A stretch of 35,810 bases of DNA, from IMG/VR virus record IMGVR_UViG_2579778748_000004, positions 1-35,810 of that record. One strand, given 5' to 3'. Position numbers and translations under genes: made by a program. The stretch is from a virus (lineage: Duplodnaviria > Heunggongvirae > Uroviricota > Caudoviricetes). Below the pieces are notes generated by a model. The model was not told the origin of the DNA. It searched no databases and was given only the letters and a program-made list of their open reading frames with translations. This document shows, one piece after another, positions 7,048 through 30,378 of the stretch (position 1 is the first letter of the stretch; the number at the start of each line of letters is the position of its first letter).

Positions 7048-8238
7048 TTAATTGCTGTTAACCGAGGTGACCAGATTTGCCAGGTATTTATCGGTAATAC
7101 GCTGGCGCAGGGTCAGGTTTTCAAGAGGAGGCACCGGTGTATAGTCGTAGTCGATATACAGTTTTCCGGCCTTGAGGGTTTCCGCATCGTTGGATTCTTC
7201 GCTGAACCAGCAGGTCGCATCCACGATATAGCCGTTTGTTTTCAGCTCACGGAATTTGGCATTGATGCCGTCAACGATGTCGCGAATCAGCGTTGCGGTG
7301 ATGGGCTTGTCCACCGCCCACATGTGCGCCTCAGCCATCGTGTCGGCCAGCACCTGCGCGGTGCGGGTGTAGTTTTCAAAGAGGAACAGCGGGTCATCAG
7401 AGCAGGTACGGTTACCCCAGAATCGGAAACCGTCACGGCGAATCAGCGTTGTGACACCTGACTCGTTCAACAGGTCAGCATCGGTGCCGGACTCCTGCAA
7501 ATCCCAGAATACAGAGGCACTGATGCCGGTAACACCGTTTACCCCGACGTTGGACAGCGTTTTATGCCAGCCCTGCTCCTGGTCGATTTTAGCGCGCAGG
7601 CCCAGCGCACGGGCGGTGGCATACGCGGTGGCGGTGGTACTGGCGACCGTATCCCATGCGAGGAAATCCGGCCAGATGACCATCAGCTCACGCTGGCTGA
7701 AATTCTGGCGGTAGGCTTTCACCTCGGAAATGGTTTTACAGCCCCATGCACTGATATACCCGAAAGCGCGCAGCTTCTGACAGACTGATGCCAGTGCAAC
7801 CGCCACCTCTTTGGTGTCCAGTCCCGGCACACCGAGAATACGCGGTTTAACACCGGTAACCGACTCCGCCGCCAGCAGGGCTTTCAGTCCGGTGTACTGA
7901 CCGTTTTCGTCGGTGGTGCCGATGATATTGGAAACAGTCTGCGCGAGTTTCGTTTCTTCGTCTTCGCCGGTCCCGTCTTCCACACGCACGACAACGGTGA
8001 CCGGTTTTGACTGGTCGGCGATGGCCTGCAACGATGCCGCCAGCGTGCCTTTTTTACCGGCCTTTGCAATTGCGCTCTGCACATTGGTAATCAGCACCGG
8101 TTTATTGAGGGGGAAGGTTTCCGCATCCGCATCGCTGGCCGTGCAGACCATGCCGACAATGGCCGTGGATACGGTGGAAATGACGCGGGTGCCGTCGTTA
8201 ATCTCCAGCACCTGCACGCCGTGATGATAGTCACTCAT
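7048..8238 (-). CDS. FI: Contractile tail sheath protein FI
   Basis: 396 aa; P2 synteny; GGAG ribosome-binding site upstream of the ATG at 8238. Confidence 0.9.
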   Translation of the reverse strand: MSDYHHGVQVLEINDGTRVISTVSTAIVGMVCTASDADAETFPLNKPVLITNVQSAIAKAGKKGTLAASLQAIADQSKPVTVVVRVEDGTGEDEETKLAQTVSNIIGTTDENGQYTGLKALLAAESVTGVKPRILGVPGLDTKEVAVALASVCQKLRAFGYISAWGCKTISEVKAYRQNFSQRELMVIWPDFLAWDTVASTTATAYATARALGLRAKIDQEQGWHKTLSNVGVNGVTGISASVFWDLQESGTDADLLNESGVTTLIRRDGFRFWGNRTCSDDPLFLFENYTRTAQVLADTMAEAHMWAVDKPITATLIRDIVDGINAKFRELKTNGYIVDATCWFSEESNDAETLKAGKLYIDYDYTPVPPLENLTLRQRITDKYLANLVTSVNSN

Positions 8239-8361: not shown

Positions 8362-8675
8362 TGTCCTGATTTGTACACACTCATTTTCCGACTGACTATT
8401 TACATAGCCGAAACGCTATCAAATATGACAGTCTGCTTTTAGCTAAGAGCGGAAGTTGTCACGAAGTTACTCTCCCCTGAGTGCAAATCCCCCAAAGTCA
8501 TTCGCAGATCAGTACCGAAAGGCGATCACTTTAACGCTCTGTATTGCGAGTGCTCAAATAAGGAGTGAGGCCATACCTACGTATTGAATCTGACGTTCTC
8601 ACACACGTTGAGCCCCAGCTCAATAGCGGCAGACCGACTGCTGAAAGAGCCGGTTAGCCAACTCAGCCCCTAGCA

Positions 8676-8740
8676 CGTAAAACTGCCCTAGATTTACTGC
8701 AGGGCAGTTAATGTAAAAGCCTCGCACTTGCGGAGGCAGT
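8676..8740 (-). terminator. Tandem hairpins downstream of the cargo operon
   Basis: Two stem-loops (about 8719..8737 and 8681..8709), each followed on the minus strand by TTTT, directly 3' of the 174-aa ORF stop. Confidence 0.45.
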
Positions 8741-8748
8741 ATTATAAT

Positions 8749-9273
8749 TCAAGCTTCATTCTTTAGTTTTTCAATGTGATTAACCTCATCATTGCTTGCT
8801 TTAGCTGCTGATTGGCCTTTCTTACTTATAATCCCTTTAACATAATTTACATTATCAATGGAGGCATCTAAGAATTTTTGAAACGACTTAGAATTAAGCA
8901 TTTCTGTCCAAGGAGTAGTATGATCTTCATCTTTCACAAAACGCAATGGAGCCTCTTCAAGTCGACTTAGCGCAGAATCAAATAAGCGTTTTTCGAACTC
9001 TCCATCTGATACCTTGCATGCCTCATTTTTGTATCCCTCATACGCTTTAGCCACAGAAGCTTTATAAGCATAATCCTCTGCGAGTTTGAAACGTTGATTA
9101 ATTTGTTTTGTAGACATCCAAGCAAACCAAAGAGGGGCGCCTATGCTAAAAACAGATAATAGTAATTGAGTGAGTATTACTACCGCACTAGGATTTGGGT
9201 TATTCAAAACCCCAGAAAGAACTTTCAATCTTTCATATCCGACTAAACCACCAAGCCCCAAAGCAACTGCCAA
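8749..9273 (-). CDS. Hypothetical membrane protein, second gene of the Z/fun-position cargo operon
   Basis: 174-aa ORF; strongly hydrophobic segment AVVILTQLLLSVFSIGAPLWFAW predicted as transmembrane; AT-rich compared with flanking phage genes; the ORF-track start is a TTG, so the true start is uncertain. Confidence 0.6.
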   Translation of the reverse strand: MAVALGLGGLVGYERLKVLSGVLNNPNPSAVVILTQLLLSVFSIGAPLWFAWMSTKQINQRFKLAEDYAYKASVAKAYEGYKNEACKVSDGEFEKRLFDSALSRLEEAPLRFVKDEDHTTPWTEMLNSKSFQKFLDASIDNVNYVKGIISKKGQSAAKASNDEVNHIEKLKNEA

Positions 9274-9398
9274 ACCGGCAACCCATAGTTGGATACTTCG
9301 GTTAAGCTTATCTGCTTTTATTTCAAATGCTCCTGCTAAGCCTTTCGATGTTGAAGCCCTAATAGCCTCTTCGCAAAGAGCCAGATACCGGGCAGCCT

Positions 9399-10049
9399 CT
9401 ATATTTTTTCTTGCAACTCATCAATAATTTTTTTTGCGGCTTCTTCTTGGGACTCTAAACTGAAATGAGTTTTAGATATCTTCTCCTTTAAATCAGATGC
9501 TTCTTTGTTGTATTCCTTTAATTCATTTAAGTCTATAGGTATATTTTCTGCAGCTACATGAGCATCATTAATCGTTTTAACTTTACTCTCAAGAGCATCC
9601 ATCTCAGGATCAATCTTGTTAATTCTCGCCTCCATGCTTTTAATTTTTCTGCTTAAATTTCTAGGAAGTAAATTAGCATTATCCAACCGCTTCCATGTAA
9701 ACGATTCATCCAAGAAATGGTCAACATATGCCAGTGTTAGCATATATGAAGATATAGCTCGTGCGGAGTTAACGCCTGAGAACTCTGGGACGTGAACTCT
9801 AATGAGTGTGTCAATTTTTTCAGGGAGAGATGAATAAGCGGCAATTTCTTTTTCAGTTAGTTCAATATCACCATATGCTTTCAGCTTGTTAATAATGCAA
9901 ATTATTTGGTCAATTAGGTCATCTGATGTTATTGCCGGAACATCAACCCCAAGAGTATTCGTCATCAACCCATCTTGGATGGTCAGACCTTCTATAGCCT
10001 TCTCAAGCCTCAAAAGTGCGTCATAAGTTCCCTTAAAGCCAGTATGCAT
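9399..10049 (-). CDS. Hypothetical coiled-coil protein, first gene of the Z/fun-position cargo operon
   Basis: 216-aa ORF with an ATG start; K/E-rich heptad-like C-terminus (…EARINKIDPEMDALESKVKTINDAH… and …ESQEEAAKKIIDELQEKI); AT-rich; no catalytic motif I can recognise. Confidence 0.65.
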   Translation of the reverse strand: MHTGFKGTYDALLRLEKAIEGLTIQDGLMTNTLGVDVPAITSDDLIDQIICIINKLKAYGDIELTEKEIAAYSSLPEKIDTLIRVHVPEFSGVNSARAISSYMLTLAYVDHFLDESFTWKRLDNANLLPRNLSRKIKSMEARINKIDPEMDALESKVKTINDAHVAAENIPIDLNELKEYNKEASDLKEKISKTHFSLESQEEAAKKIIDELQEKI

Positions 10050-10075
10050 ATTTTATTCCATGAACTTAAGTGATG

Positions 10076-10081
10076 ATTATA
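10076..10081 (-). promoter_or_regulatory. Candidate -10 hexamer (TATAAT) for the cargo operon
   Basis: Perfect TATAAT on the minus strand about 27 nt upstream of the 216-aa ORF start codon, in an AT-rich intergenic region; no good -35 at canonical spacing. Confidence 0.3.
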
Positions 10082-10343
10082 CAGGCTGCTTTGCAACCTG
10101 CTTTCGTTGTTAGTGTATGTAGCATATACATAATTCTATAGCGTATACCTATTCATTTTACCCTTCGTTTTCACAGGAAGCCATATGATTAATGCCGCTT
10201 AAAAAGCCAGCAGTGTAGTGGCATACGGATTTTGGCCACAGAAGCAGAAGTGTGGGATGTCCGCTCCTGGCACAGAGCGGACTGTCAGATTAGGCTTTAC
10301 TCTGTGCCATAGATATGTAAACTCCCACCAGAACTCATACAAC

Positions 10344-10871
10344 TTATTGCGGCATTTCTGGCCATTCAGGATTTGCAGTATCCACACGACTGACCAGAAC
10401 GTTGTAGCGTTCCCATGCTTCCAGTCGGCTGCGTTCCTCATCTGTTGCCATATTCAGCCTGACAGCGCGCTCCAGCGGCAAAATCACGGATTCAGCATCT
10501 GCAAGAAGTCTGCCTTTCCGATTTTCTGCCTGCTGCTGCAATTCCTCTGCCGTATAAATTCGTTTAATCACAGCACCATCCTTAAACATCCATTTACCTG
10601 AGTCGTCAGCACGTCGGTTGGAGGTAATATCAGGAACCTCAACAACGCTAAAACCTTCAGGATTAAGCGTTGAAGCATCTCTGGTGATAGCGACAATAAT
10701 ATTATTTTCATCGTAAACAATCTTTATTGTGTCTGGCTGAAAGTTCTTCACTTCCTCATACCAGTTTTTTCCGTCCTCAGAGTAAAGCCAGATAACTCCG
10801 TGTTTCTTTGTTAACTCATACTGTTCCAGTGTTTTAGCGTTACCCGCTTTTATGTTCTTTAAGTGCATCAT
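10344..10871 (-). CDS. G: Tail fibre assembly protein G
   Basis: 175 aa; directly downstream of the tail fibre gene; C-terminal ...[10 protein letters not shown] motif typical of tail-fibre assembly chaperones. Confidence 0.85.
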
Positions 10872-21740: not shown

Positions 21741-21913
21741 TGTCAGGAGTCCTGAATAGTGATTAGAGGAGTCACATGTCGGCATCAGTTTCCCGACGAT
21801 GCGCATCCTCCGCCATCAGTCCCGGATGGCTTATCACTGATACAACAGCACCTTAGCGAATCGCAGGGCGCGACTCAGTAGCCTTGCCGTGTATTCATCA
21901 CGGCGAGGTATTC

Positions 21914-23686
21914 ATGACCATCACCACAGACACCACTCTTTTACACGACCCGCGTCGTCAGGCGGCGCTGCTGTACTGGCAGGGGTTTTCCGTGCCGCAG
22001 ATTGCCGCCATGTTGCAGATGAAACGCCCGACGGTGCAGAGCTGGAAACAGCGCGACGGCTGGGACAGCGTTGCTCCCATCAGCCGTGTCGAAATGAGTC
22101 TGGAAGCGCGGCTGACCCAGCTCATCATCAAACCGCAGAAAACCGGCGGTGACTTCAAGGAAATTGACCTGCTCGGACGCCAGATTGAACGACTGGCGCG
22201 GGTCAACCGTTACAGCCAGACCGGCAACGAGGCAGACCTTAATCCGAACGTTGCTAACCGCAACAAAGGCGGGCGTCGCAAACCGAAAAAGAATTTTTTC
22301 AGTGACGAGGCCATCGAAAAGCTGGAGCAGATTTTCTTTGAGCAGTCTTTCGAATATCAGTTGCACTGGTATCGCGCAGGGCTTGAGCACCGCATCCGCG
22401 ATATCCTGAAATCCCGCCAGATTGGCGCGACGTTTTATTTTTCCCGCGAGGCGCTGCTGCGCGCCCTGAAAACCGGTCATAACCAGATTTTTCTGTCGGC
22501 CAGTAAAACGCAGGCGTATGTGTTCCGCGAATACATCATCGCCTTTGCCCGGCTGGTTGACGTTGACCTGACCGGTGACCCAATTGTCCTGGGCAATAAC
22601 GGCGCAAAACTGATTTTTCTCGGCACCAACTCCAACACCGCACAGAGCCATAACGGCGACCTGTACGTCGACGAGATTTTCTGGATCCCGAATTTTCAGG
22701 TACTGCGTAAGGTGGCATCAGGTATGGCCTCACAGAGTCACCTGCGCTCGACCTATTTCTCCACCCCGTCCACGCTGGCGCACGACGCCTACCCGTTCTG
22801 GTCGGGTGAACTGTTCAACCGGGGACGCGCCAGCGCCGCCGAACGTGTGGAAATCGACGTCAGTCATAACGCCCTTGCCGGTGGTCTTCTCTGTGCGGAC
22901 GGCCAGTGGCGGCAGATTGTCACCATTGAGGACGCCCTGAAAGGCGGCTGCACATTGTTCGACATTGAGCAGCTCAAACGCGAAAACAGCGCCGACGATT
23001 TTAAAAACCTGTTCATGTGTGAATTTGTTGACGACAAGGCATCGGTGTTCCCGTTTGAGGAGCTGCAACGCTGCATGGTCGACACGCTGGAAGAATGGGA
23101 AGACTATGCGCCGTTTGCCGCCAATCCGTTCGGCTCACGTCCGGTATGGATTGGTTACGACCCGTCACACCGTGGCGACAGCGCCGGATGCGTGGTACTG
23201 GCACCGCCAGTGGTGGCCGGTGGCAAATTCAGAATACTTGAGCGTCACCAGTGGAAAGGCATGGACTTTGCCACTCAGGCGGAATCCATCCGCAAACTCA
23301 CCGAAAAATACAACGTCGAATACATCGGTATTGATGCCACCGGCCTCGGTGTCGGCGTGTTCCAGCTCGTGCGCTCGTTCTATCCCGCCGCGCGCGACAT
23401 CCGCTACACGCCGGAAATGAAAACCGCAATGGTGCTCAAGGCAAAAGACGTCATCCGCCGTGGCTGTCTGGAATATGACGTCAGCGCCACCGACATCACC
23501 AGCTCGTTTATGGCTATCCGCAAGACCATAACCAGCAGCGGACGCAGCGCCACCTATGAGGCCAGCCGCAGCGAGGAAGCCAGCCACGCCGACCTCGCCT
23601 GGGCAACCATGCACGCCCTGTTAAATGAGCCACTCACCGCCGGTATCAGCACCCCGCTGACATCCACCATTCTGGAGTTTTACTGA
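21914..23686 (+). CDS. P: Terminase large (ATPase) subunit P
   Basis: 590-aa product from the ATG at 21914 (MTITTDTTLLHDPRRQAALLYWQGFSVPQIAAML…) with a ribosome-binding site; the ORF-track start at 21884 is a TTG extension; divergent from O as in P2. Confidence 0.85.
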   Translation: MTITTDTTLLHDPRRQAALLYWQGFSVPQIAAMLQMKRPTVQSWKQRDGWDSVAPISRVEMSLEARLTQLIIKPQKTGGDFKEIDLLGRQIERLARVNRYSQTGNEADLNPNVANRNKGGRRKPKKNFFSDEAIEKLEQIFFEQSFEYQLHWYRAGLEHRIRDILKSRQIGATFYFSREALLRALKTGHNQIFLSASKTQAYVFREYIIAFARLVDVDLTGDPIVLGNNGAKLIFLGTNSNTAQSHNGDLYVDEIFWIPNFQVLRKVASGMASQSHLRSTYFSTPSTLAHDAYPFWSGELFNRGRASAAERVEIDVSHNALAGGLLCADGQWRQIVTIEDALKGGCTLFDIEQLKRENSADDFKNLFMCEFVDDKASVFPFEELQRCMVDTLEEWEDYAPFAANPFGSRPVWIGYDPSHRGDSAGCVVLAPPVVAGGKFRILERHQWKGMDFATQAESIRKLTEKYNVEYIGIDATGLGVGVFQLVRSFYPAARDIRYTPEMKTAMVLKAKDVIRRGCLEYDVSATDITSSFMAIRKTITSSGRSATYEASRSEEASHADLAWATMHALLNEPLTAGISTPLTSTILEFY

Positions 23687-24720
23687 TGAGCAAGAAAAAA
23701 GGGAAAACACCGCAACCTGCGGCAAAAACAATGACCGCCAGCGCCCCGAAAATGGAGGCATTCACCTTTGGTGAGCCGGTGCCGGTACTCGACCGCCGTG
23801 ACATTCTGGATTACGTCGAGTGCATCAGTAACGGCAGATGGTATGAGCCACCGGTCAGCTTTACCGGTCTGGCAAAAAGCCTGCGTGCTGCCGTGCATCA
23901 CAGCTCACCGATTTACGTCAAACGTAATATTCTGGCCTCGACATTTATCCCGCATCCGTGGCTTTCCCAGCAGGATTTCAGCCGCTTTGTGCTGGATTTT
24001 CTGGTGTTCGGTAATGCGTTTCTGGAAAAGCGTTACAGCACCACCGGTAAGGTCATCAGGCTGGAAACCTCACCGGCAAAATATACCCGCCGTGGTGTGG
24101 AAGAGGATGTTTACTGGTGGGTGCCGTCCTTCAACGAGCCGACAGCCTTCGCGCCCGGCTCCGTGTTTCACCTGCTGGAGCCGGATATTAATCAGGAGCT
24201 GTACGGCCTGCCGGAATATCTCAGCGCCCTTAATTCTGCCTGGCTGAATGAGTCGGCCACGCTGTTCCGCCGCAAGTATTACGAAAACGGCGCTCATGCC
24301 GGATATATCATGTACGTCACCGATGCCGTGCAGGATCGCAACGATATCGAAATGCTTCGCGAAAACATGGTCAAGTCGAAAGGCCGCAACAACTTTAAAA
24401 ATCTGTTTCTCTATGCCCCGCAGGGGAAAGCCGACGGCATTAAAATTATCCCGCTCAGTGAAGTGGCAACGAAGGACGATTTTTTTAATATCAAAAAAGC
24501 CAGCGCCGCTGACCTGCTGGACGCGCACCGCATCCCCTTTCAGTTGATGGGCGGCAAGCCGGAGAACGTCGGGTCGCTGGGTGATATTGAGAAAGTGGCA
24601 AAGGTCTTTGTCCGCAATGAGCTTATCCCTCTACAGGACAGGATCCGCGAGATAAACGGCTGGCTCGGTCAGGAGGTCATCCGCTTTAAAAACTACTCAC
24701 TGGACACTGACAACGGCTGA
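23686..24720 (+). CDS. Q: Portal protein Q
   Basis: 344 aa; start overlaps the P stop (TGATGA); P2 synteny. Confidence 0.9.
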   Translation: MSKKKGKTPQPAAKTMTASAPKMEAFTFGEPVPVLDRRDILDYVECISNGRWYEPPVSFTGLAKSLRAAVHHSSPIYVKRNILASTFIPHPWLSQQDFSRFVLDFLVFGNAFLEKRYSTTGKVIRLETSPAKYTRRGVEEDVYWWVPSFNEPTAFAPGSVFHLLEPDINQELYGLPEYLSALNSAWLNESATLFRRKYYENGAHAGYIMYVTDAVQDRNDIEMLRENMVKSKGRNNFKNLFLYAPQGKADGIKIIPLSEVATKDDFFNIKKASAADLLDAHRIPFQLMGGKPENVGSLGDIEKVAKVFVRNELIPLQDRIREINGWLGQEVIRFKNYSLDTDNG

Positions 24721-24889: not shown

Positions 24890-24908
24890 GTGCTTTCCCC
24901 GCCTCGCC
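24890..24908. other. cos site (19-nt cohesive-end sequence)
   Basis: GTGCTTTCCCCGCCTCGCC is the reverse complement of the P2 cohesive end GGCGAGGCGGGGAAAGCAC as I recall it; located between Q and the early region as in P2. Confidence 0.75.
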
Positions 24909-25059
24909 CGCCCGCTTCATAGGTCGGTTTTAATGCAGGTGCATTACCACTTTTGAGGGGCGTCCGTCCTGACGGTGCACAGCCAGAACATGCAACTTAG
25001 GCACATGCAAAACCACGCACATATTGCATGCACTGCTAAAAATAGGAGTATCGCAGAAA

Positions 25060-25096
25060 AAAACACAAAAAAACCGGCATTCATAGTGCCGGTTTT
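25060..25096. terminator. Bidirectional intrinsic terminator
   Basis: Hairpin CCGGCA-TTCATAG-TGCCGG flanked by an A-run on the 5' side and a T-run on the 3' side. Confidence 0.5.
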
Positions 25097-25231
25097 GGCC
25101 AATTTTTAAAGTTGTCACTGGCCGCGCAATGCACCAATCTCACTGTTGACGCACATGTTGACAACAATTAGCAGAACAATCGTGTCCACACATTTTTACA
25201 AACGACACCTAACAGATTGATACAGATCATT

Positions 25232-25426
25232 TTATTTGTTCATTCGAATATAATTCAATAGCATCTTGATGACCTGAGCGAGTTCTACGCTAGTTGCCTG
25301 CGCAACCAGCTTATCGGTATATATGTCAACTTCGCGTGAACTAAGATCATTGTTTTGTGCCAGAGTGGTAATCTGCCTCGTCCAGCGTTTAACCCACTCA
25401 TTATCAAAAGAAATGGAATTTTGCAT
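25232..25426 (-). CDS. Hypothetical small protein (64 aa), divergent from the cargo genes; may be spurious
   Basis: AT-rich ORF whose ATG shares the palindrome CATG with the start of the opposite-strand 145-aa ORF; no convincing ribosome-binding site. Confidence 0.25.
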   Translation of the reverse strand: MQNSISFDNEWVKRWTRQITTLAQNNDLSSREVDIYTDKLVAQATSVELAQVIKMLLNYIRMNK

Positions 25427-25862
25427 GTCGAAAAATCTCGATTTATTTAACCAACAAACGGCGGAAATCTTTGCAGTACTATGGGAAAATTTTCCCGTAC
25501 CACAGGTGATTAACTACGACAAATTTAACGCCGCGCTACCTGATGACTACTTTGACCAACTTAACTCACCAGAAATGAAAGCGTTAAATCAGTTGCGTAG
25601 TGTGGTTGAAGGTACATTCAATTTTCTCTGTGAAAACGGGTACATTCAGTACAACACAGACCATCAGTCGTATTTTTACGATGTTCGACTTACTGAAAAA
25701 GCGCTCACAGTTCTTAACAAAAAACCCGAGGTGCTTGGTGGAAATGAAACGATGGGGGATAAAGTGATCAGTGCGGTGAAAGATGGGACTCCTGGGGTCA
25801 TTGCCGGTGTGATTACAAATCTGCTGACTCACGGCGTTAATCTGGTTGCGTCAGTGTCATAG
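25425..25862 (+). CDS. Hypothetical protein (about 145 aa), first gene of the old/tin-position cargo
   Basis: ORF-track frame 25323..25862; likely starts at the ATG at 25425 (MSKNLDLFNQQ…) or 25413; AT-rich; soluble-looking; no motif I can assign. Confidence 0.6.
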   Translation: MSKNLDLFNQQTAEIFAVLWENFPVPQVINYDKFNAALPDDYFDQLNSPEMKALNQLRSVVEGTFNFLCENGYIQYNTDHQSYFYDVRLTEKALTVLNKKPEVLGGNETMGDKVISAVKDGTPGVIAGVITNLLTHGVNLVASVS

Positions 25863-26024
25863 CCAACGCCCCAAAGAGACTCATTGTCCCTCGTCACACT
25901 ACTTGCTTTTAGTTCTGACGAGATTAAATCCGCTCACAGTGTTTACTGCGGAAAAGTTGCGTTATTATCCATATGATTTAACATCTTGGATTCATGTTAA
26001 TTCACAGTTTAATAAGGATATGGA

Positions 26025-27116
26025 ATGGGTTACGAAATTGATTTTCTAGCTGTTGGCGAAAAAAAAAGCGGCGATGCGATCTGCATCAGATGGGGAAACC
26101 TACATGGTTCAAGAGATGAACAAAAAGTTGTCGTTATTGATGCAGGATATGCCAGCACCGGAGAACAAGTCATTGAGCATATTGAAAAATACTACCGCAC
26201 AAAAACTATTGACTTGCTTATCTCCACACACCCCGATGGTGACCACGTCGGTGGACTTACATCTGTTCTAGAAAATGCAGAAGTAAAAGAGTTTTGGATT
26301 CATAAGCCTTGGGAACATAATCAAGGTCTCGCAAGTGAGTTTGCAGATGGCAGGATAACTGATGCCAGTATTGCAAATCGAATGAAAGAAAACTTACAAA
26401 AAGCTTATGACGCTGTCAAATTAGCGGAAAAAAAAGGAATTGAAATAAAAGAGCCTTTTCAAGGAATGACCTGGGATAATGCTACTCTGGTTGTTATCGG
26501 GCCAACCCAATCTTACTATGAGACTCTAATACCTGATTTCGCAAGAATGCCCAAAAAAGCTGAGGATACAGCTGGATTTGAAGTACTAAAAGCAGTCTTT
26601 GAGTCTGTAGTTGAAAAAACGAAGAAATTTATTGATTACGTTGCTGAATGGTTTACTGATGAAGGTATTGATAATGAAGATACCACCTCGGCACAAAATA
26701 ACTCAAGTGTCATTTTGAAACTTGAGATTGATGGAAGAACGTTAGTGTTCACTGGCGATGCTGGTATAACAGCCTTAGATCAAGCCTCCCAATACATTAA
26801 TAAAGAATCATTAAGATTCATTCAAGTACCTCATCATGGTAGCCGGAGAAATGTAGGCCCTGATGTTCTCGATAAACTTGTTGGTAACATTGTAAATGAA
26901 GGCGAAAAAAGGGAGATAACCGCATTTGTATCATGTGCCCCAGGTTCAGATAAACATCCCCATCAAGCTGTAATTAATGCCTTTACTCGACGAGGAGCGA
27001 AAGTTATCGCCACCGAGGGGCTTGGTAAGTACCATTTTTATAATGCTCCTGAAAGGGCAGGATGGAAAACAGCCACTCCACGATCATACATTAGTAACTA
27101 TAGAACCGAAGAATAA
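26025..27116 (+). CDS. Metallo-beta-lactamase-fold protein, ComEC/Rec2-like, putative nuclease
   Basis: 363 aa with AAGGA ribosome-binding site; motif series VVVIDAGY, THPDGDHVGG (H-x-D-x-D-H), VFTGDAG and VPHHGSR fits the metallo-beta-lactamase fold of the ComEC type as I recall it; AT-rich. Confidence 0.7.
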   Translation: MGYEIDFLAVGEKKSGDAICIRWGNLHGSRDEQKVVVIDAGYASTGEQVIEHIEKYYRTKTIDLLISTHPDGDHVGGLTSVLENAEVKEFWIHKPWEHNQGLASEFADGRITDASIANRMKENLQKAYDAVKLAEKKGIEIKEPFQGMTWDNATLVVIGPTQSYYETLIPDFARMPKKAEDTAGFEVLKAVFESVVEKTKKFIDYVAEWFTDEGIDNEDTTSAQNNSSVILKLEIDGRTLVFTGDAGITALDQASQYINKESLRFIQVPHHGSRRNVGPDVLDKLVGNIVNEGEKREITAFVSCAPGSDKHPHQAVINAFTRRGAKVIATEGLGKYHFYNAPERAGWKTATPRSYISNYRTEE

Positions 27117-27129
27117 TTCAAAAGCTGCC

Positions 27130-27750
27130 TTACGGCAGCTTATTATTAACAGCATTTACTCTATATATTATGTATCTTATTTGTTTAATATATGAGACAA
27201 CAAACAAAATAGCAAAAACCGCCAACGTTATTTTAGATAAGCCATATGTCTCGCCAGTAAACCGTCCTACAACGCACAATGTCGCCAAAAGAATAATTGA
27301 CATTGAAAATATCGTCCTATACATATTCGCAATCTCTTGCAAAGTTTCAATTTTTCCATCCACACCACATGCTGACACATAATCTTTATAAGGAGCAAAC
27401 TTAATCAAACGCGATAGTTTTAAAAAAGGTTCCAATACGATAGAACCAATCCGGCCAATGACTAAGCCAACAAAATAATAGAGGACAACATTTTTTATTA
27501 AATCATCGCCAGATAAAACGATATTCGTCATTCTCTCAAGAAGATAAATAAAAAGAGCACCTGGAAAAAGATTATTAAATATATTATATGACGATATTTT
27601 TTCCCATAAACCATCCATACCAATCACCTTACTACAGTTTAAATCAGAGATCATTTTCATTGAAAAATACATATATAGCAAGAAATCTATAGCGATTCTG
27701 ACATCCAACCTGAGTCTATCAGTAGTTAATCTCTTCAGAAAAGAGTGCAT
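27130..27750 (-). CDS. Hypothetical multi-pass membrane protein (about 206 aa)
   Basis: ORF 27130..27762, with ATG at 27750; four to five hydrophobic helices; very AT-rich; convergent with the MBL-fold gene, stops 13 bp apart. Confidence 0.6.
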   Translation of the reverse strand: MHSFLKRLTTDRLRLDVRIAIDFLLYMYFSMKMISDLNCSKVIGMDGLWEKISSYNIFNNLFPGALFIYLLERMTNIVLSGDDLIKNVVLYYFVGLVIGRIGSIVLEPFLKLSRLIKFAPYKDYVSACGVDGKIETLQEIANMYRTIFSMSIILLATLCVVGRFTGETYGLSKITLAVFAILFVVSYIKQIRYIIYRVNAVNNKLP

Positions 27751-27904
27751 AACGAAAACCAATCACAGGAAATCGGCTATGTAAATTTTCGACCGTCGTA
27801 TATCAATGGTACACCACGCCCCCCACGCTTACATTACTTCTGTGTGATGCCATACTGAGCGAGGTCTATATAAATACTAGTAATTTATCACAAACCTGAT
27901 TTGA

Positions 27905-28049
27905 TCAGCCTCGCGATGGCACAAATGCAAGCGGTTTTAACGGACTTCCGTTTCTTTGCTGACGATTTGGTATTCTCAGACCGTGTTTTAATGCACCTCT
28001 GAGCGCCCTCACGACCGCCGGATCATTCCATTCGATTACCCGTCATCAA
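27905..28049. repeat. Degenerate direct repeat of the A 3' region, copy 1 (spans the A stop codon)
   Basis: About 120 bp at 27931..28049 is roughly 92% identical to 28263..28382 inside A; weaker similarity extends about 25 bp further upstream. Confidence 0.75.
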
Positions 28050-30378
28050 ATTGATTCCACTCTGTTATAGTTGAATATCCCGGCCACTCATCAGCGACCG
28101 GATACGTGAATTTTTTCCCGTCATAATTTACGGTTGCCCCACGCGCCAGCGACTCAAGCTCCCATCGCTGAGGTCTGATACCGTTCTGAGCAAGATCAAC
28201 GCGAATACGGGTAATTTGCAATCGCTCCGACCTGGTCAGCCTGGCTGATGGCGCTATTTCATGCGGTTTTAACGGACTTCCGTTTCTTTGCTGACGATTT
28301 GGTGTTCTCAGTCCGCATTTTAATGCACCTCTGAGCGCCCTCACAACCTCCGGGTCACTCCATTCGATAACACCGTCATCAACCAGATTAAGCACTGCTG
28401 CGGCGTGTTCAGAAGGTGTGGGAGCCGGTAACGAAGTATCACCACCGGTGAGCTTTCCACAGTTATTGACAGGACTCCGAGGCGCGGCGATGCCGCTTTT
28501 TAAAGTCAAAGGCTCAACGACCGGAACTTTCGGCACAATGCGCCAGTCCGTCGTTCTGGTGATATGAATATGACGCGCGCCGAGATGCGGCGCGTAAATG
28601 CCGACCACTCTCCCGACTTCTTCCTCGTACTCGTTAACGTCATCCGACGGGCTACGGGCGACTCTGACAGTCTGGCAATCACGCGGAACATTTGCCCCAC
28701 CCTGCGCGCTGATATACAACGCAAAATCACCACTGTCTGCGGCGGCACGTGCAGCCTCAACTCGTTCGTCAAACTCATCAGCAATGCTGACGCCGCGAGG
28801 CAATTTGCGTAGTTCACGGTAAGCCCCCATTGTCGGCAGGCCAACCGTTTTAAATTGCGGGATGCGCCACGTTGACGCCCATGCGGTAACAGCCGCAGCA
28901 GTATCTTTCAGCGGCCTGCCGGTATCGTTATCGAGCTGACCATCCAGTGCATAGCCATCGATGTTTTTTGAGATGTATTTCGCGATATACCCCGCAGCAC
29001 CGCCCCGGTTAAGATGTTTTGCCTGAAAACGGTTTCGCGCGGCTCCTCTTTCGTCGCCATCCTCTTTGAGCGCATAGCGACGCATGATTTCGATAATCTG
29101 GTTACGCTGGCGTGGATTACAAAAAAGCATCATATGCCAGTGCGGCGTTCCGTCGTGGTGTGGCTCGACGACTCGCAAACCGTAGACCTGTAAATCATTA
29201 TCCTTGAATGCCGTGCGCATCAGGCTCCAGATACGGCAGAGATAACGCTGCGCATCCTTTGGATTAAATGCCTCATCGTTCCAGCCGTGATTAAGCTGAA
29301 CGGTTTTACTTTCGCCTTTTCTGACCTGACGAGTCGGGTGATACTTTGACGGCGCGGTCAGCGTGATAAACATCCCCACATCACCCTCTGCGGCGGCGTA
29401 ACGCTCAATACCGGCAATGGTGTTCATCAGCTCCATCCGGCGAATTTCAGGATTAGAAATACTGCCCATCACCTTACTGATAAGGTCGATGCGCTCGCCG
29501 GTTTCCCTGTTTTCAAGGTCACACGATTTAAGAAATTCCAGATTTGCCTGGCGGCGCGCACGCACATCACGAATGGCGTGTTTACTGGCATAAGGAGAAC
29601 GGTCTTTATTGACCTCCCCGACAGCTATCAGTAACGCTTCATGCCAGCGCATACGCTGGCCTTTAAGCTGATGAGTCCACCACTCATCGTTAAACAGACG
29701 GGCAATGGCAGAATATGCCTGCCTCGTGGTCATCTGCCCTTTACGGTATTTTTTCCAGTAGAGAGGGGAAATATTGAAAGCACGTGCAGCGCCAGCAACA
29801 TGACCATAGAGGTGAGCCTGCGCCTCATCCGTAAACAGCGATTCTTTTTCGCCATGCGCATCCACCCAGGCATCGCTGAGTTCCTCATACATCATGAAAA
29901 GCTGCGATGAGATACGGGCAGCAAACTTTTTCAGCTCCTTGTCATTCATTCCCGGCAGGCGCGCATAGTGGTCACGCTCTGCCAGAAACAGTAACGACGC
30001 GTCGGTGTTCATTTCATGGCGCTGATTCACACGCTCAATGCGCGGCCATAAACGACGCTGAAAAGTGGATGTGAGGAAATAAAACCCGTGTACCGGGCTT
30101 TTATTGCGCCGGATGTAGTCATAGCGTGAAGTAAACAGCGAGCGCAAAAAGTAAGGCAGGCGGTTAATCGTGGATAAAACACCTTGCACCTGACGCATCT
30201 CGTCACGTGTAAGGGGTCTTTCGCGCCCGACGGCCTCGCGTGGCGCGTTCCATGCATAAGCACCGGTAAACGCCTTACCGGTGCCTGCAGCAAATGCTGA
30301 AGGAGGGACAAAACGCCCGGAGGCTTTAACGGCCATATGAGCCAAAAGCCTCTGAACAACGCCTGCTGAGTTGCTCAA
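28036..30378 (-). CDS. A: Replication initiation protein A (rolling-circle HUH endonuclease)
   Basis: 780 aa; HUH-type motif …TPHWHMMLF… and tyrosine pair …YIAKYISKNIDGY…; P2 synteny. Confidence 0.9.
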   Translation of the reverse strand: MSNSAGVVQRLLAHMAVKASGRFVPPSAFAAGTGKAFTGAYAWNAPREAVGRERPLTRDEMRQVQGVLSTINRLPYFLRSLFTSRYDYIRRNKSPVHGFYFLTSTFQRRLWPRIERVNQRHEMNTDASLLFLAERDHYARLPGMNDKELKKFAARISSQLFMMYEELSDAWVDAHGEKESLFTDEAQAHLYGHVAGAARAFNISPLYWKKYRKGQMTTRQAYSAIARLFNDEWWTHQLKGQRMRWHEALLIAVGEVNKDRSPYASKHAIRDVRARRQANLEFLKSCDLENRETGERIDLISKVMGSISNPEIRRMELMNTIAGIERYAAAEGDVGMFITLTAPSKYHPTRQVRKGESKTVQLNHGWNDEAFNPKDAQRYLCRIWSLMRTAFKDNDLQVYGLRVVEPHHDGTPHWHMMLFCNPRQRNQIIEIMRRYALKEDGDERGAARNRFQAKHLNRGGAAGYIAKYISKNIDGYALDGQLDNDTGRPLKDTAAAVTAWASTWRIPQFKTVGLPTMGAYRELRKLPRGVSIADEFDERVEAARAAADSGDFALYISAQGGANVPRDCQTVRVARSPSDDVNEYEEEVGRVVGIYAPHLGARHIHITRTTDWRIVPKVPVVEPLTLKSGIAAPRSPVNNCGKLTGGDTSLPAPTPSEHAAAVLNLVDDGVIEWSDPEVVRALRGALKCGLRTPNRQQRNGSPLKPHEIAPSARLTRSERLQITRIRVDLAQNGIRPQRWELESLARGATVNYDGKKFTYPVADEWPGYSTITEWNQFDDG
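28237..28382. repeat. Degenerate direct repeat of the A 3' region, copy 2 (inside the A coding sequence)
   Basis: Pairs with 27905..28049; within A it encodes ...VDDGVIEWSDPEVVRALRGALKCGLRTPNRQQRNGSPLKPHE. Confidence 0.75.

Follow-up and report, generated by a model that had tools for sequence, protein, structure and literature searches.

The stretch of DNA analyzed here (35,810 nucleotides (nt); IMG/VR record IMGVR_UViG_2579778748_000004, positions 1 to 35,810; 'the window') is a P2-like prophage, with an orientation that is reversed relative to the P2 map. Between its cos site and replication gene A, it contains a pair of adjacent genes (26025–27618) that encode a 363-amino-acid (aa) protein with the metallo-β-lactamase (MBL) fold of ComEC and a 162-aa protein with four predicted membrane spans. 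We think it quite possible, and propose tentatively, that this pair is a defense module in which the membrane protein controls a deoxyribonuclease (DNase) effector that is triggered by phage infection, probably with an abortive outcome. Both proteins match PADLOC candidate PDC-M48 over their full length (A, the membrane protein; B, the MBL protein); the phage defense candidates (PDCs) were identified among genes that lie inside BREX, DISARM, or type I restriction–modification (RM) systems (Payne et al., 2024, 10.1101/2024.01.29.577857). The pair is, then, a member of an already catalogued candidate family and not a new kind of system; the initial annotation of the window, which could match these genes to no named system, has to be revised because both match PDC-M48A/B and the set is also listed in Table S5A of Rousset et al., 2022.

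The MBL protein (WP_021561350, PDC-M48B; 26025–27116, + strand) is the predicted DNase effector. It had been described as a 363-aa MBL-fold protein with HPDGDH and HHGS motifs, and this description holds: the motifs are found as STHPDGDH (residues 67–74) and PHHGS (residues 269–273), and the metal ligands are intact. The PADLOC profile (PDLC04676, E = 1.1e-100) aligns residues 3–357 with positions 5–353 of 357, and Pfam identifies Lactamase_B (E = 6e-12). Weaker PADLOC matches are to LmuA (1.6e-29), RTasMBL (4e-20), and Avs1a (2.5e-14); the NCBIfam Avs1a model also matches (E = 4e-17) with 62 bits, which does not reach its equivalog cut-off of 420. By sequence, the closest solved relatives are the β-lactamase-like domains of ComEC proteins, with which the HPDxDH and PHHGSR motifs align. 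The fold agrees: with an AlphaFold2 model (43 homologues; predicted local distance difference test (pLDDT) 89), the top match in the PDB is the ComEC MBL domain 9ic4 (E = 2.6e-15, TM-score 0.73 on the target), and the second-best matches are to the phosphorylcholine esterase Pce. Residues H69, D71, D73, H74, H93, D245, H270, and H271 are invariant in the 43 homologues. The protein lacks transmembrane (TM) segments and a signal peptide, and strand 1 of its fold begins at residue 2; we therefore place the enzyme in the cytoplasm. From the intact ligands and the activities of its ComEC and HamM relatives, we infer that it is a metal-dependent DNase.

Several other identities for the MBL protein were considered and rejected. 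It is not a member of the ComEC family proper (TIGR00361 gives 49 bits vs a cut-off of 190 and covers only positions 558–660 of 663), nor is it 6A-MBL (NF058524 gives 33.9 bits vs a cut-off of 220, and no genes of a ubiquitin-like system are nearby). The 'tail protein' label of PHROG 7043 we judge to be an artefact of a chimeric family (the match is to positions 619–901 of 1077). RefSeq names the protein 'ComEC/Rec2 family competence protein', a misnomer for which Pfam and NCBIfam give no support; the name 'tail protein' in the NC_049389 record likewise has no support in these databases.

The membrane protein (WP_021561351, PDC-M48A; 27130–27618, − strand) is a four-helix inner-membrane protein that is predicted to dock and regulate the MBL enzyme. 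It matches PADLOC profile PDLC04670 (E = 1.5e-50) across positions 1–162 of 164. The initial annotation had the strand and the multi-pass character of this protein right and its length wrong: 206 aa had been given, and we reject that start in favor of 162 aa. In every genome examined, the RefSeq annotation is 162 aa; a start at MDGLWEKISSYN or its equivalent is common to all 23 homologues that were aligned, which range from enterics to Firmicutes and Bacteroidetes; the first position of the PADLOC profile falls on residue 49 of the longer open reading frame (ORF); and AGGTGA is located 5 nt upstream of the ATG at 27618. The 189 homologues that we collected are 157–197 aa in length. The polar motifs EKISSYNxFNxLxPG, YYFxGxxxxRxGSxxxEP, SExNNxYRT, and SYxKQxxYIxxR are strikingly conserved in the alignment, with R56, E63, R101, and K145 as invariant polar residues within or next to the helices. 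The AlphaFold2 model contains four long helices (pLDDT 89); a fold search of the PDB with this model yields no relative and no fold resembling the ComEC channel (best E = 2), and no Pfam family matches. Some RefSeq records name this protein 'phosphohistidine phosphatase', for which there is no Pfam or NCBIfam support.

The distribution of lysine and arginine, counted across 24 homologues, differs among the connecting segments of the membrane protein: 0.5 in loop 1 (8 residues), 5.8 in loop 2 (37 residues), 0.2 in loop 3 (about 5 residues), and 4.2 in the C-terminus (16 residues). By the positive-inside rule, both termini are predicted to be cytoplasmic, so the protein would have almost no periplasmic exposure and every conserved motif would be on or near the cytoplasmic face. 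Such an arrangement is less suited to an extracellular sensor than to a platform on which a cytoplasmic enzyme is docked or regulated.

In E. coli, the pair moves as a unit. Of 5426 complete genomes, 45 have the pair in this hotspot as one of two alleles (∼72% DNA identity over the two genes), 23 with the allele in the window and 22 with the second allele, which also is present in the isolated phages P24E6b, D8, 11W, and 12W; the proteins encoded by the two alleles are about 75% and 65% identical. The flanking genes are common to 500 E. coli records, and only 45 contain the pair. Both alleles are listed as P2-hotspot arrangements in Table S5A of Rousset et al., 2022 (WP_021561351, WP_021561350, WP_001752367, and one more protein for this allele; WP_021533448 and WP_021533447 for the second), and neither arrangement appears in any other supplementary file of that paper. 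The terms 'MBL' and 'lactamase' are absent from the main texts of Rousset et al., 2022 and Vassallo et al., 2022, and a 2026 preprint on the P2/P4 hotspots does not discuss the pair. In E. coli PC6, the P2-like prophage with the second allele is truncated by IS26 within the portal gene, with the pair and gene A intact (L002, 1677–3392).

The association of the MBL protein with a membrane protein extends far beyond the enterics. Scanning one genome per species, we collected 80 loci of the MBL subfamily (30–73% identity) from Gammaproteobacteria, Alphaproteobacteria, Streptomyces, Acidobacteria, Omnitrophota, Bacteroidota, Campylobacter, candidate phyla radiation (CPR) bacteria, and archaeal metagenome-assembled genomes (MAGs); 72 complete loci, three of them from E. 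coli, were analyzed. In 54 of these, the MBL stop codon is abutted by an ORF for a 122–258-aa protein with 2–4 predicted TM helices. With one exception, the gap between the two genes ranges from −58 to +48 nt, mostly −3 to +10; only in the enteric P2 lineage is the TM ORF not on the MBL strand. Four further loci have an abutting TM protein upstream or a longer TM protein, and four are interrupted by contig ends. Judged from these sequences, the pairing of the MBL and membrane proteins is ancient.

Although the enzyme is conserved, its membrane partner is not always of the same family. The partners separate by sequence into clusters of 25, 22, and 6 loci and one unclustered singleton, and the MBL proteins remain 40–55% identical while the partner changes among the three families. 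We find no support for a common origin of these families: profile–profile comparison (hhalign) gives probabilities of 5–11%, with no detectable kinship, and Pfam matches nothing. Such a pattern, in which the partner can be exchanged and the enzyme is conserved, usually marks an effector that is shared among variable sensors or regulators. The PADLOC A-profiles model the 162-aa type alone, so PDC-M48 as defined covers one of the three partner families of this MBL subfamily. The two further families that abut the MBL gene are multi-pass proteins of about 205–238 aa and about 200–258 aa (e.g., L010, 7102–7725, and L043, 7091–7849), each with a conserved soluble segment between the TM helices and with no Pfam or PADLOC model; defense finders in current use would fail to recognize these loci as pairs.

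Distant homologues of the 162-aa protein also are found with MBL genes. In Faecalibacillus, the membrane gene precedes and overlaps a gene for a 297-aa MBL protein, and in a conjugative transposon of Porphyromonas it follows a gene for a 359-aa MBL protein; a third homologue follows an unannotated 320-aa protein with no Pfam match. The locus of Faecalibacillus intestinalis (L087, 3916–4962) has a 4-nt overlap, a DUF4365 protein encoded ahead of the pair, and a location within a polysaccharide-synthesis cluster.

The genome neighborhoods of the MBL loci are rich in defense genes. Among the two nearest large ORFs at each of 67 loci, type I RM specificity subunits occur eight times and type I methyltransferases six times, in agreement with the derivation of PDC-M48 from RM-embedded genes; phospholipase D (PLD) nucleases, Eco57I-type enzymes, MoxR-vWA systems, LexA-like repressors, and resolvases also recur. 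When large neighbors were scanned singly, eight of ten were known or candidate defense proteins (DruE3, DruH3, a type I restriction endonuclease, a type I methyltransferase, ZorA1, an Old/GajA-like ATPase, PDC-S06, and an E1-E2/JAB protein). Together with the location of the pair in prophage hotspots and conjugative transposons, these neighbors constitute strong guilt by association. In Vibrio sinaloensis, Shewanella sp. ANA-3, and a Thalassolituus MAG, the pair is located directly beside DruE3/DruH3 (Druantia type III) or ZorA1 (loci L006, 60–5744; L031, 8189–11728; and L021, 8141–10072); this may mean that the pair is embedded within these systems or merely that it is adjacent to them.

In the window, the pair is located in a hotspot that is known for variable cargo. 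The island is flanked on one side by the genes for terminase P (21884–23686) and portal Q (23686–24720), the latter followed by a strong terminator, and on the other side by replication gene A (28036–30378, − strand). A 19-nt sequence, GGCGAGGCGGGGAAAGCAC, which we take to be the P2 cohesive-end sequence, is found exactly at 24890–24908 (− strand; a match in none of 100 shuffles); this P2-type cos is the left boundary of the hotspot. The GC content across 25001–28000 is 0.36–0.43, vs 0.52–0.58 to either side. The variable genes of low GC content that separate cos/Q from gene A in this P2-like prophage are cargo of the P2 cos–A hotspot, the site of old and tin in P2, for which 1,650 gene arrangements have been cataloged (Rousset et al., 2022). 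An AT-rich island of foreign, low-GC cargo at the old/tin position had been proposed initially, and the GC dip, the flanking genes, and the published hotspot bear this out. The proposed start of the island (25232) is the end of a minus-strand gene for a 64-aa protein that had been left undescribed; counting it, the island contains four genes, those for the 64-aa protein, a 145-aa protein, the MBL protein, and the membrane protein. P2 Old and Tin, exclusion functions that are expressed from the prophage, share the genomic slot with these genes; there is no homology, and no Old or Tin profile in PADLOC was matched.

In the enteric lineage, the two genes of the pair are convergent; in the window, their stop codons are 14 nt apart. 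A hairpin with an 8-bp stem and a 4-nt loop (27122–27141) spans both stop codons; it is more stable than all of 200 shuffles (minimum free energy −14.4 kcal/mol, z = −3.85) and is a plausible candidate for a shared bidirectional terminator. The membrane gene has the orientation of the early operon, of which gene A is the last gene, and the promoter of the membrane gene should be located in the AT-rich, non-coding spacer of 417 bp between the gene A stop codon and the membrane gene (27619–28035, − strand), which includes the spurious 5′ extension of the 206-aa ORF.

In the mechanism that we propose, the 363-aa MBL protein would be the effector, a cytoplasmic, metal-dependent DNase of the ComEC type, and the 162-aa protein, with four inner-membrane spans and both ends inside, would hold the nuclease at the cytoplasmic side of the membrane and act as its switch. 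Docking and control are suggested by the conserved adjacency of the genes, their translational coupling outside the enterics, and the conserved cytoplasmic surface of the membrane protein. In the lysogen, the nuclease would be held harmless, either by its variable insertion (approximately residues 177–200) or by binding of its partner. A change in the inner membrane that is induced by the phage (DNA entry, depolarization, or early lysis functions) would then release or activate the nuclease, which would degrade DNA so that phage replication halts, probably at the cost of the infected cell. The coupling of infection to a membrane trigger, with the abortive outcome that would follow, is proposed by analogy and is the weakest step of this proposal.

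The suggestion that the nuclease is restrained by its own insertion comes from a comparison with ComEC. Relative to ComEC, the MBL protein has ∼74 extra residues between the HPDxDH and NNSS motifs; within these, segment 184–197 is variable in sequence and modeled with low confidence, has invariant residues on either side (F172/M175/P176 and W209/D212), and matches in position the autoinhibitory loop of the Hachiman MBL (184–203). We regard autoinhibition as a speculative lead and not as a finding, because no protease is encoded, there is no KSS motif, and the insertion at 113–136 is confidently helical.

Several observations weigh against the proposed mechanism. The insertion at 113–136 is modeled as a helix pair and not as a disordered loop, no KSS-type cleavage motif is present in the MBL protein, and no peptidase domain is found in the island genes with Pfam, PADLOC, or NCBIfam. 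The MBL fold also supports ribonucleases and phosphodiesterases, so DNA is a presumptive substrate. In the enterics, the genes are convergent with separate promoters, not one operon, an arrangement that is unusual for a stoichiometric complex; a scan for consensus promoters gave fewer matches than in shuffled sequence and none upstream of either the MBL or the membrane gene. In approximately ten of the 72 loci, no membrane partner was found, albeit with a crude method (ORFs and hydropathy). PDC-M48 is itself a prediction, one of 145 candidates that were obtained by 'guilt-by-embedding' and that their authors call untested (Payne et al., 2024, 10.1101/2024.01.29.577857); a literature search for PDC-M48 in several spellings found no paper. 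The hotspot also carries non-defense cargo, and the P2 systems that have been validated are different ones (Rousset et al., 2022).

Among the closest known systems are MBL proteins that are activated by proteases. The group that comprises the MBL proteins associated with Avs1, Lamassu, and DRT systems and HamM of Hachiman (HamMAB) includes proven DNases; in 2025, members of this group were shown to be pro-DNases in which two inserted loops block the active site until they are cut by a fused trypsin-like protease (PMC12799240; 10.1101/2025.09.03.673762; PMC12642450). The MBL protein in the window shares with HamM and the trypsin–MBL modules (Avs1, Lamassu, DRT, Argonaute) the ComEC-like MBL fold and intact metal motifs, as well as extra insertions relative to ComEC, a defense context, and the character of an exchangeable effector module; sequence similarity is detectable with the LmuA, RTasMBL, and Avs1a profiles and the NCBIfam Avs1a model. 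However, the scores are far below the family cut-offs. The protease-activated enzymes require a trypsin, caspase, or S8 protease that is fused to a sensor (HamA, Avs, LmuA), and none is encoded here. With no protease, no KSS motif, and a small membrane protein as partner, the route of activation must differ from that of the protease-activated enzymes.

ComEC/Rec2 (9ic4) is the closest solved structure in both sequence and fold, with the HPDxDH and PHHGSR motifs in common; however, the 363-aa protein has neither an OB domain nor a transmembrane competence domain, contains the ∼74 extra residues, and is prophage cargo in a non-competent context. Two validated defense systems bear a partial resemblance to the pair. 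Rst_Hydrolase-3TM, from the P4 hotspot, consists of a HAD-like hydrolase and a TM protein (Rousset et al., 2022); it is alike in architecture only (a soluble hydrolase and a small TM protein in a sister cos-proximal hotspot), because its hydrolase is HAD and not MBL and it has no PADLOC sequence match here. DS-42 of E. coli contains an MBL-fold hydrolase and two hypothetical proteins (DefensePredictor, Science 2026); like the pair, it is protease-free, and its MBL, which resembles Avs1A and the LmuA hydrolase, also has 363 aa. We rejected homology with DS-42 because the BLASTP match between the MBL proteins has E = 0.051 and the DS-42 partners are absent here; these partners (190 and 238 aa) are soluble by sequence and not membrane proteins.

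The first alternative, which we consider unlikely, is direct immunity that is not abortive: the membrane protein would tether a constitutively active nuclease that cuts phage DNA at entry, and the cell would survive. This would be superinfection exclusion by means of a nuclease. In ComEC itself, an MBL nuclease is coupled to a DNA channel in the membrane. The conserved surfaces of the membrane protein all are predicted to be cytoplasmic, with no periplasmic sensor domain; the island encodes no protease or other activator; and the exclusion genes old and tin belong to this hotspot. However, the related defense MBLs are non-specific DNases that require tight autoinhibition, and an active DNase that is tethered to the membrane would still encounter the nucleoid; the insertion at 177–200 also suggests regulation.

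A role outside defense (for example, in the turnover of DNA or nucleotides, in lysogenic conversion, or in modification of the envelope) is less probable still. MBL enzymes such as Pce act on phosphorylcholine. The appearance of Pce as the second-best fold match would be consistent with such a role, as would the presence of partition systems in about a quarter of P2 hotspots and of toxins in some (Rousset et al., 2022), and the function of the pair is in any event predicted from sequence. However, in unrelated taxa, the pair is strongly and repeatedly associated with neighboring genes of the RM, Druantia, Zorya, and Gabija/Old-like types, and it is cargo of a conjugative transposon as well as of prophage hotspots; in sequence, the MBL protein is nearest to defense-associated MBLs and ComEC, not to Pce, and it is cytoplasmic with no signal peptide.

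The roles could also be reversed, as in a toxin–antitoxin pair, with the membrane protein killing the cell by pore formation or depolarization and the MBL enzyme sensing or restraining it; we judge this improbable. In several systems the effector is a small TM protein, translational coupling links the two genes in most taxa as it does in toxin–antitoxin pairs, and the invariant polar residues R56, E63, R101, and K145 are located in or near the helices of the membrane protein. Nevertheless, invariant catalytic residues argue that the MBL protein is under selection as an enzyme and not as a scaffold, its homologues are effectors, and the occurrence of three membrane families, unrelated by detection, with the same MBL is swapping that is typical of sensors and not of a killing device.

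The remaining genes of the island form a second module. The 64-aa gene (25232–25426, − strand; phrog_2454, E = 4e-35, full length) and the 145-aa gene (WP_001752367; 25425–25862, + strand, as initially located; phrog_2266, E = 5e-59) are divergent, with start codons that overlap in CATG. The 145-aa protein has no match in PADLOC, Pfam, or NCBIfam, and matches to leucine-rich-repeat proteins among PDB sequences are at chance level only; a PADLOC profile search with the three proteins described initially thus assigned the MBL and membrane proteins to PDC-M48 and left the 145-aa protein unassigned. The 64-aa/145-aa pair is found in 94 of the 5426 E. coli genomes, always adjoining cos, and the MBL gene is present in only 23 of the 94. 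In strain ECONIH5, the 64-aa/145-aa pair adjoins a reverse-transcriptase and helix-turn-helix cassette, and in strain D3 and phage Midge it adjoins DinI-like genes; in all three, the 64-aa homologue is annotated beside the 145-aa homologue. Phages Midge and FSLSP004 contain the 145-aa gene and no MBL gene, the second E. coli allele of the MBL–membrane pair (22 genomes) occurs without the 64-aa/145-aa pair, and the 145-aa homologue is absent from all 80 MBL loci of other taxa. The 64-aa/145-aa module is also present in phage ST147-VIM1phi7.1, and the record for Midge notes the 145-aa homologue, as annotated there, as HHpred-similar (91%) to T7 gp5.5/5.7.

Because it occurs in 94 genomes beside unrelated cargo, we reject the 145-aa protein as a partner for the MBL enzyme; by its distribution, the 64-aa/145-aa pair is an independent module and no part of the MBL system, and the island consists of two modules (25232–25862 and 26025–27618). 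The initial annotation had proposed a three-gene sensor/effector unit with the 145-aa protein as the small partner of the MBL enzyme, of which the MBL and membrane proteins survive as a plausible defense pair; the 145-aa gene is located 162 nt upstream of the MBL gene on the same strand and is co-present in all 23 genomes with this allele, but this three-gene system is highly improbable and already largely refuted, since the 145-aa gene is linked to its divergent 64-aa neighbor, occurs in 71 other E. coli genomes, Midge, and FSLSP004 with no MBL gene, is absent from the other allele and from all non-enteric loci, and encodes a protein with no PADLOC match. As a practical correction, the 145-aa gene should not be treated as part of the MBL system when the system is cloned.

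A second AT-rich island in the window (8500–10100, GC content 0.37–0.42) occupies the Z/fun position of P2 and is flanked by the genes for the tail sheath (7048–8238, − strand) and for tail-fibre assembly (10344–10871, − strand). Its two ORFs (8749–9273, − strand, 174 aa, and 9399–10049, − strand, 216 aa) have no match in Pfam or PADLOC; this island may be uncharacterized cargo of the second P2 hotspot.

The interest that remains is in the class of candidates that combine an MBL protein with a membrane protein, in the absence from this island of the protease of better-known relatives, and in a family that is broader than its PADLOC definition. PDC-M48 is under-defined, with two further partner families that PADLOC does not model, so most instances are missed by current tools. 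If the pair is active, it would validate one PADLOC candidate in a tractable E. coli prophage and provide a second mode of control, by the membrane rather than by proteolysis, for an MBL DNase effector that so far is known only in protease-activated form. A broader idea, which we regard as possible and rather doubtful, is that small four-helix membrane proteins with both ends inside, from at least three families with no detectable kinship, are interchangeable sensors of membrane state or DNA entry that license a conserved cytoplasmic ComEC-like DNase. If this is true, protease-independent control of a defense MBL nuclease would be widespread, spanning Proteobacteria, Actinobacteria, Bacteroidota, Firmicutes, CPR bacteria, and archaeal MAGs, and the copy in the P2 prophage of E. 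coli would be a ready-made genetic model.

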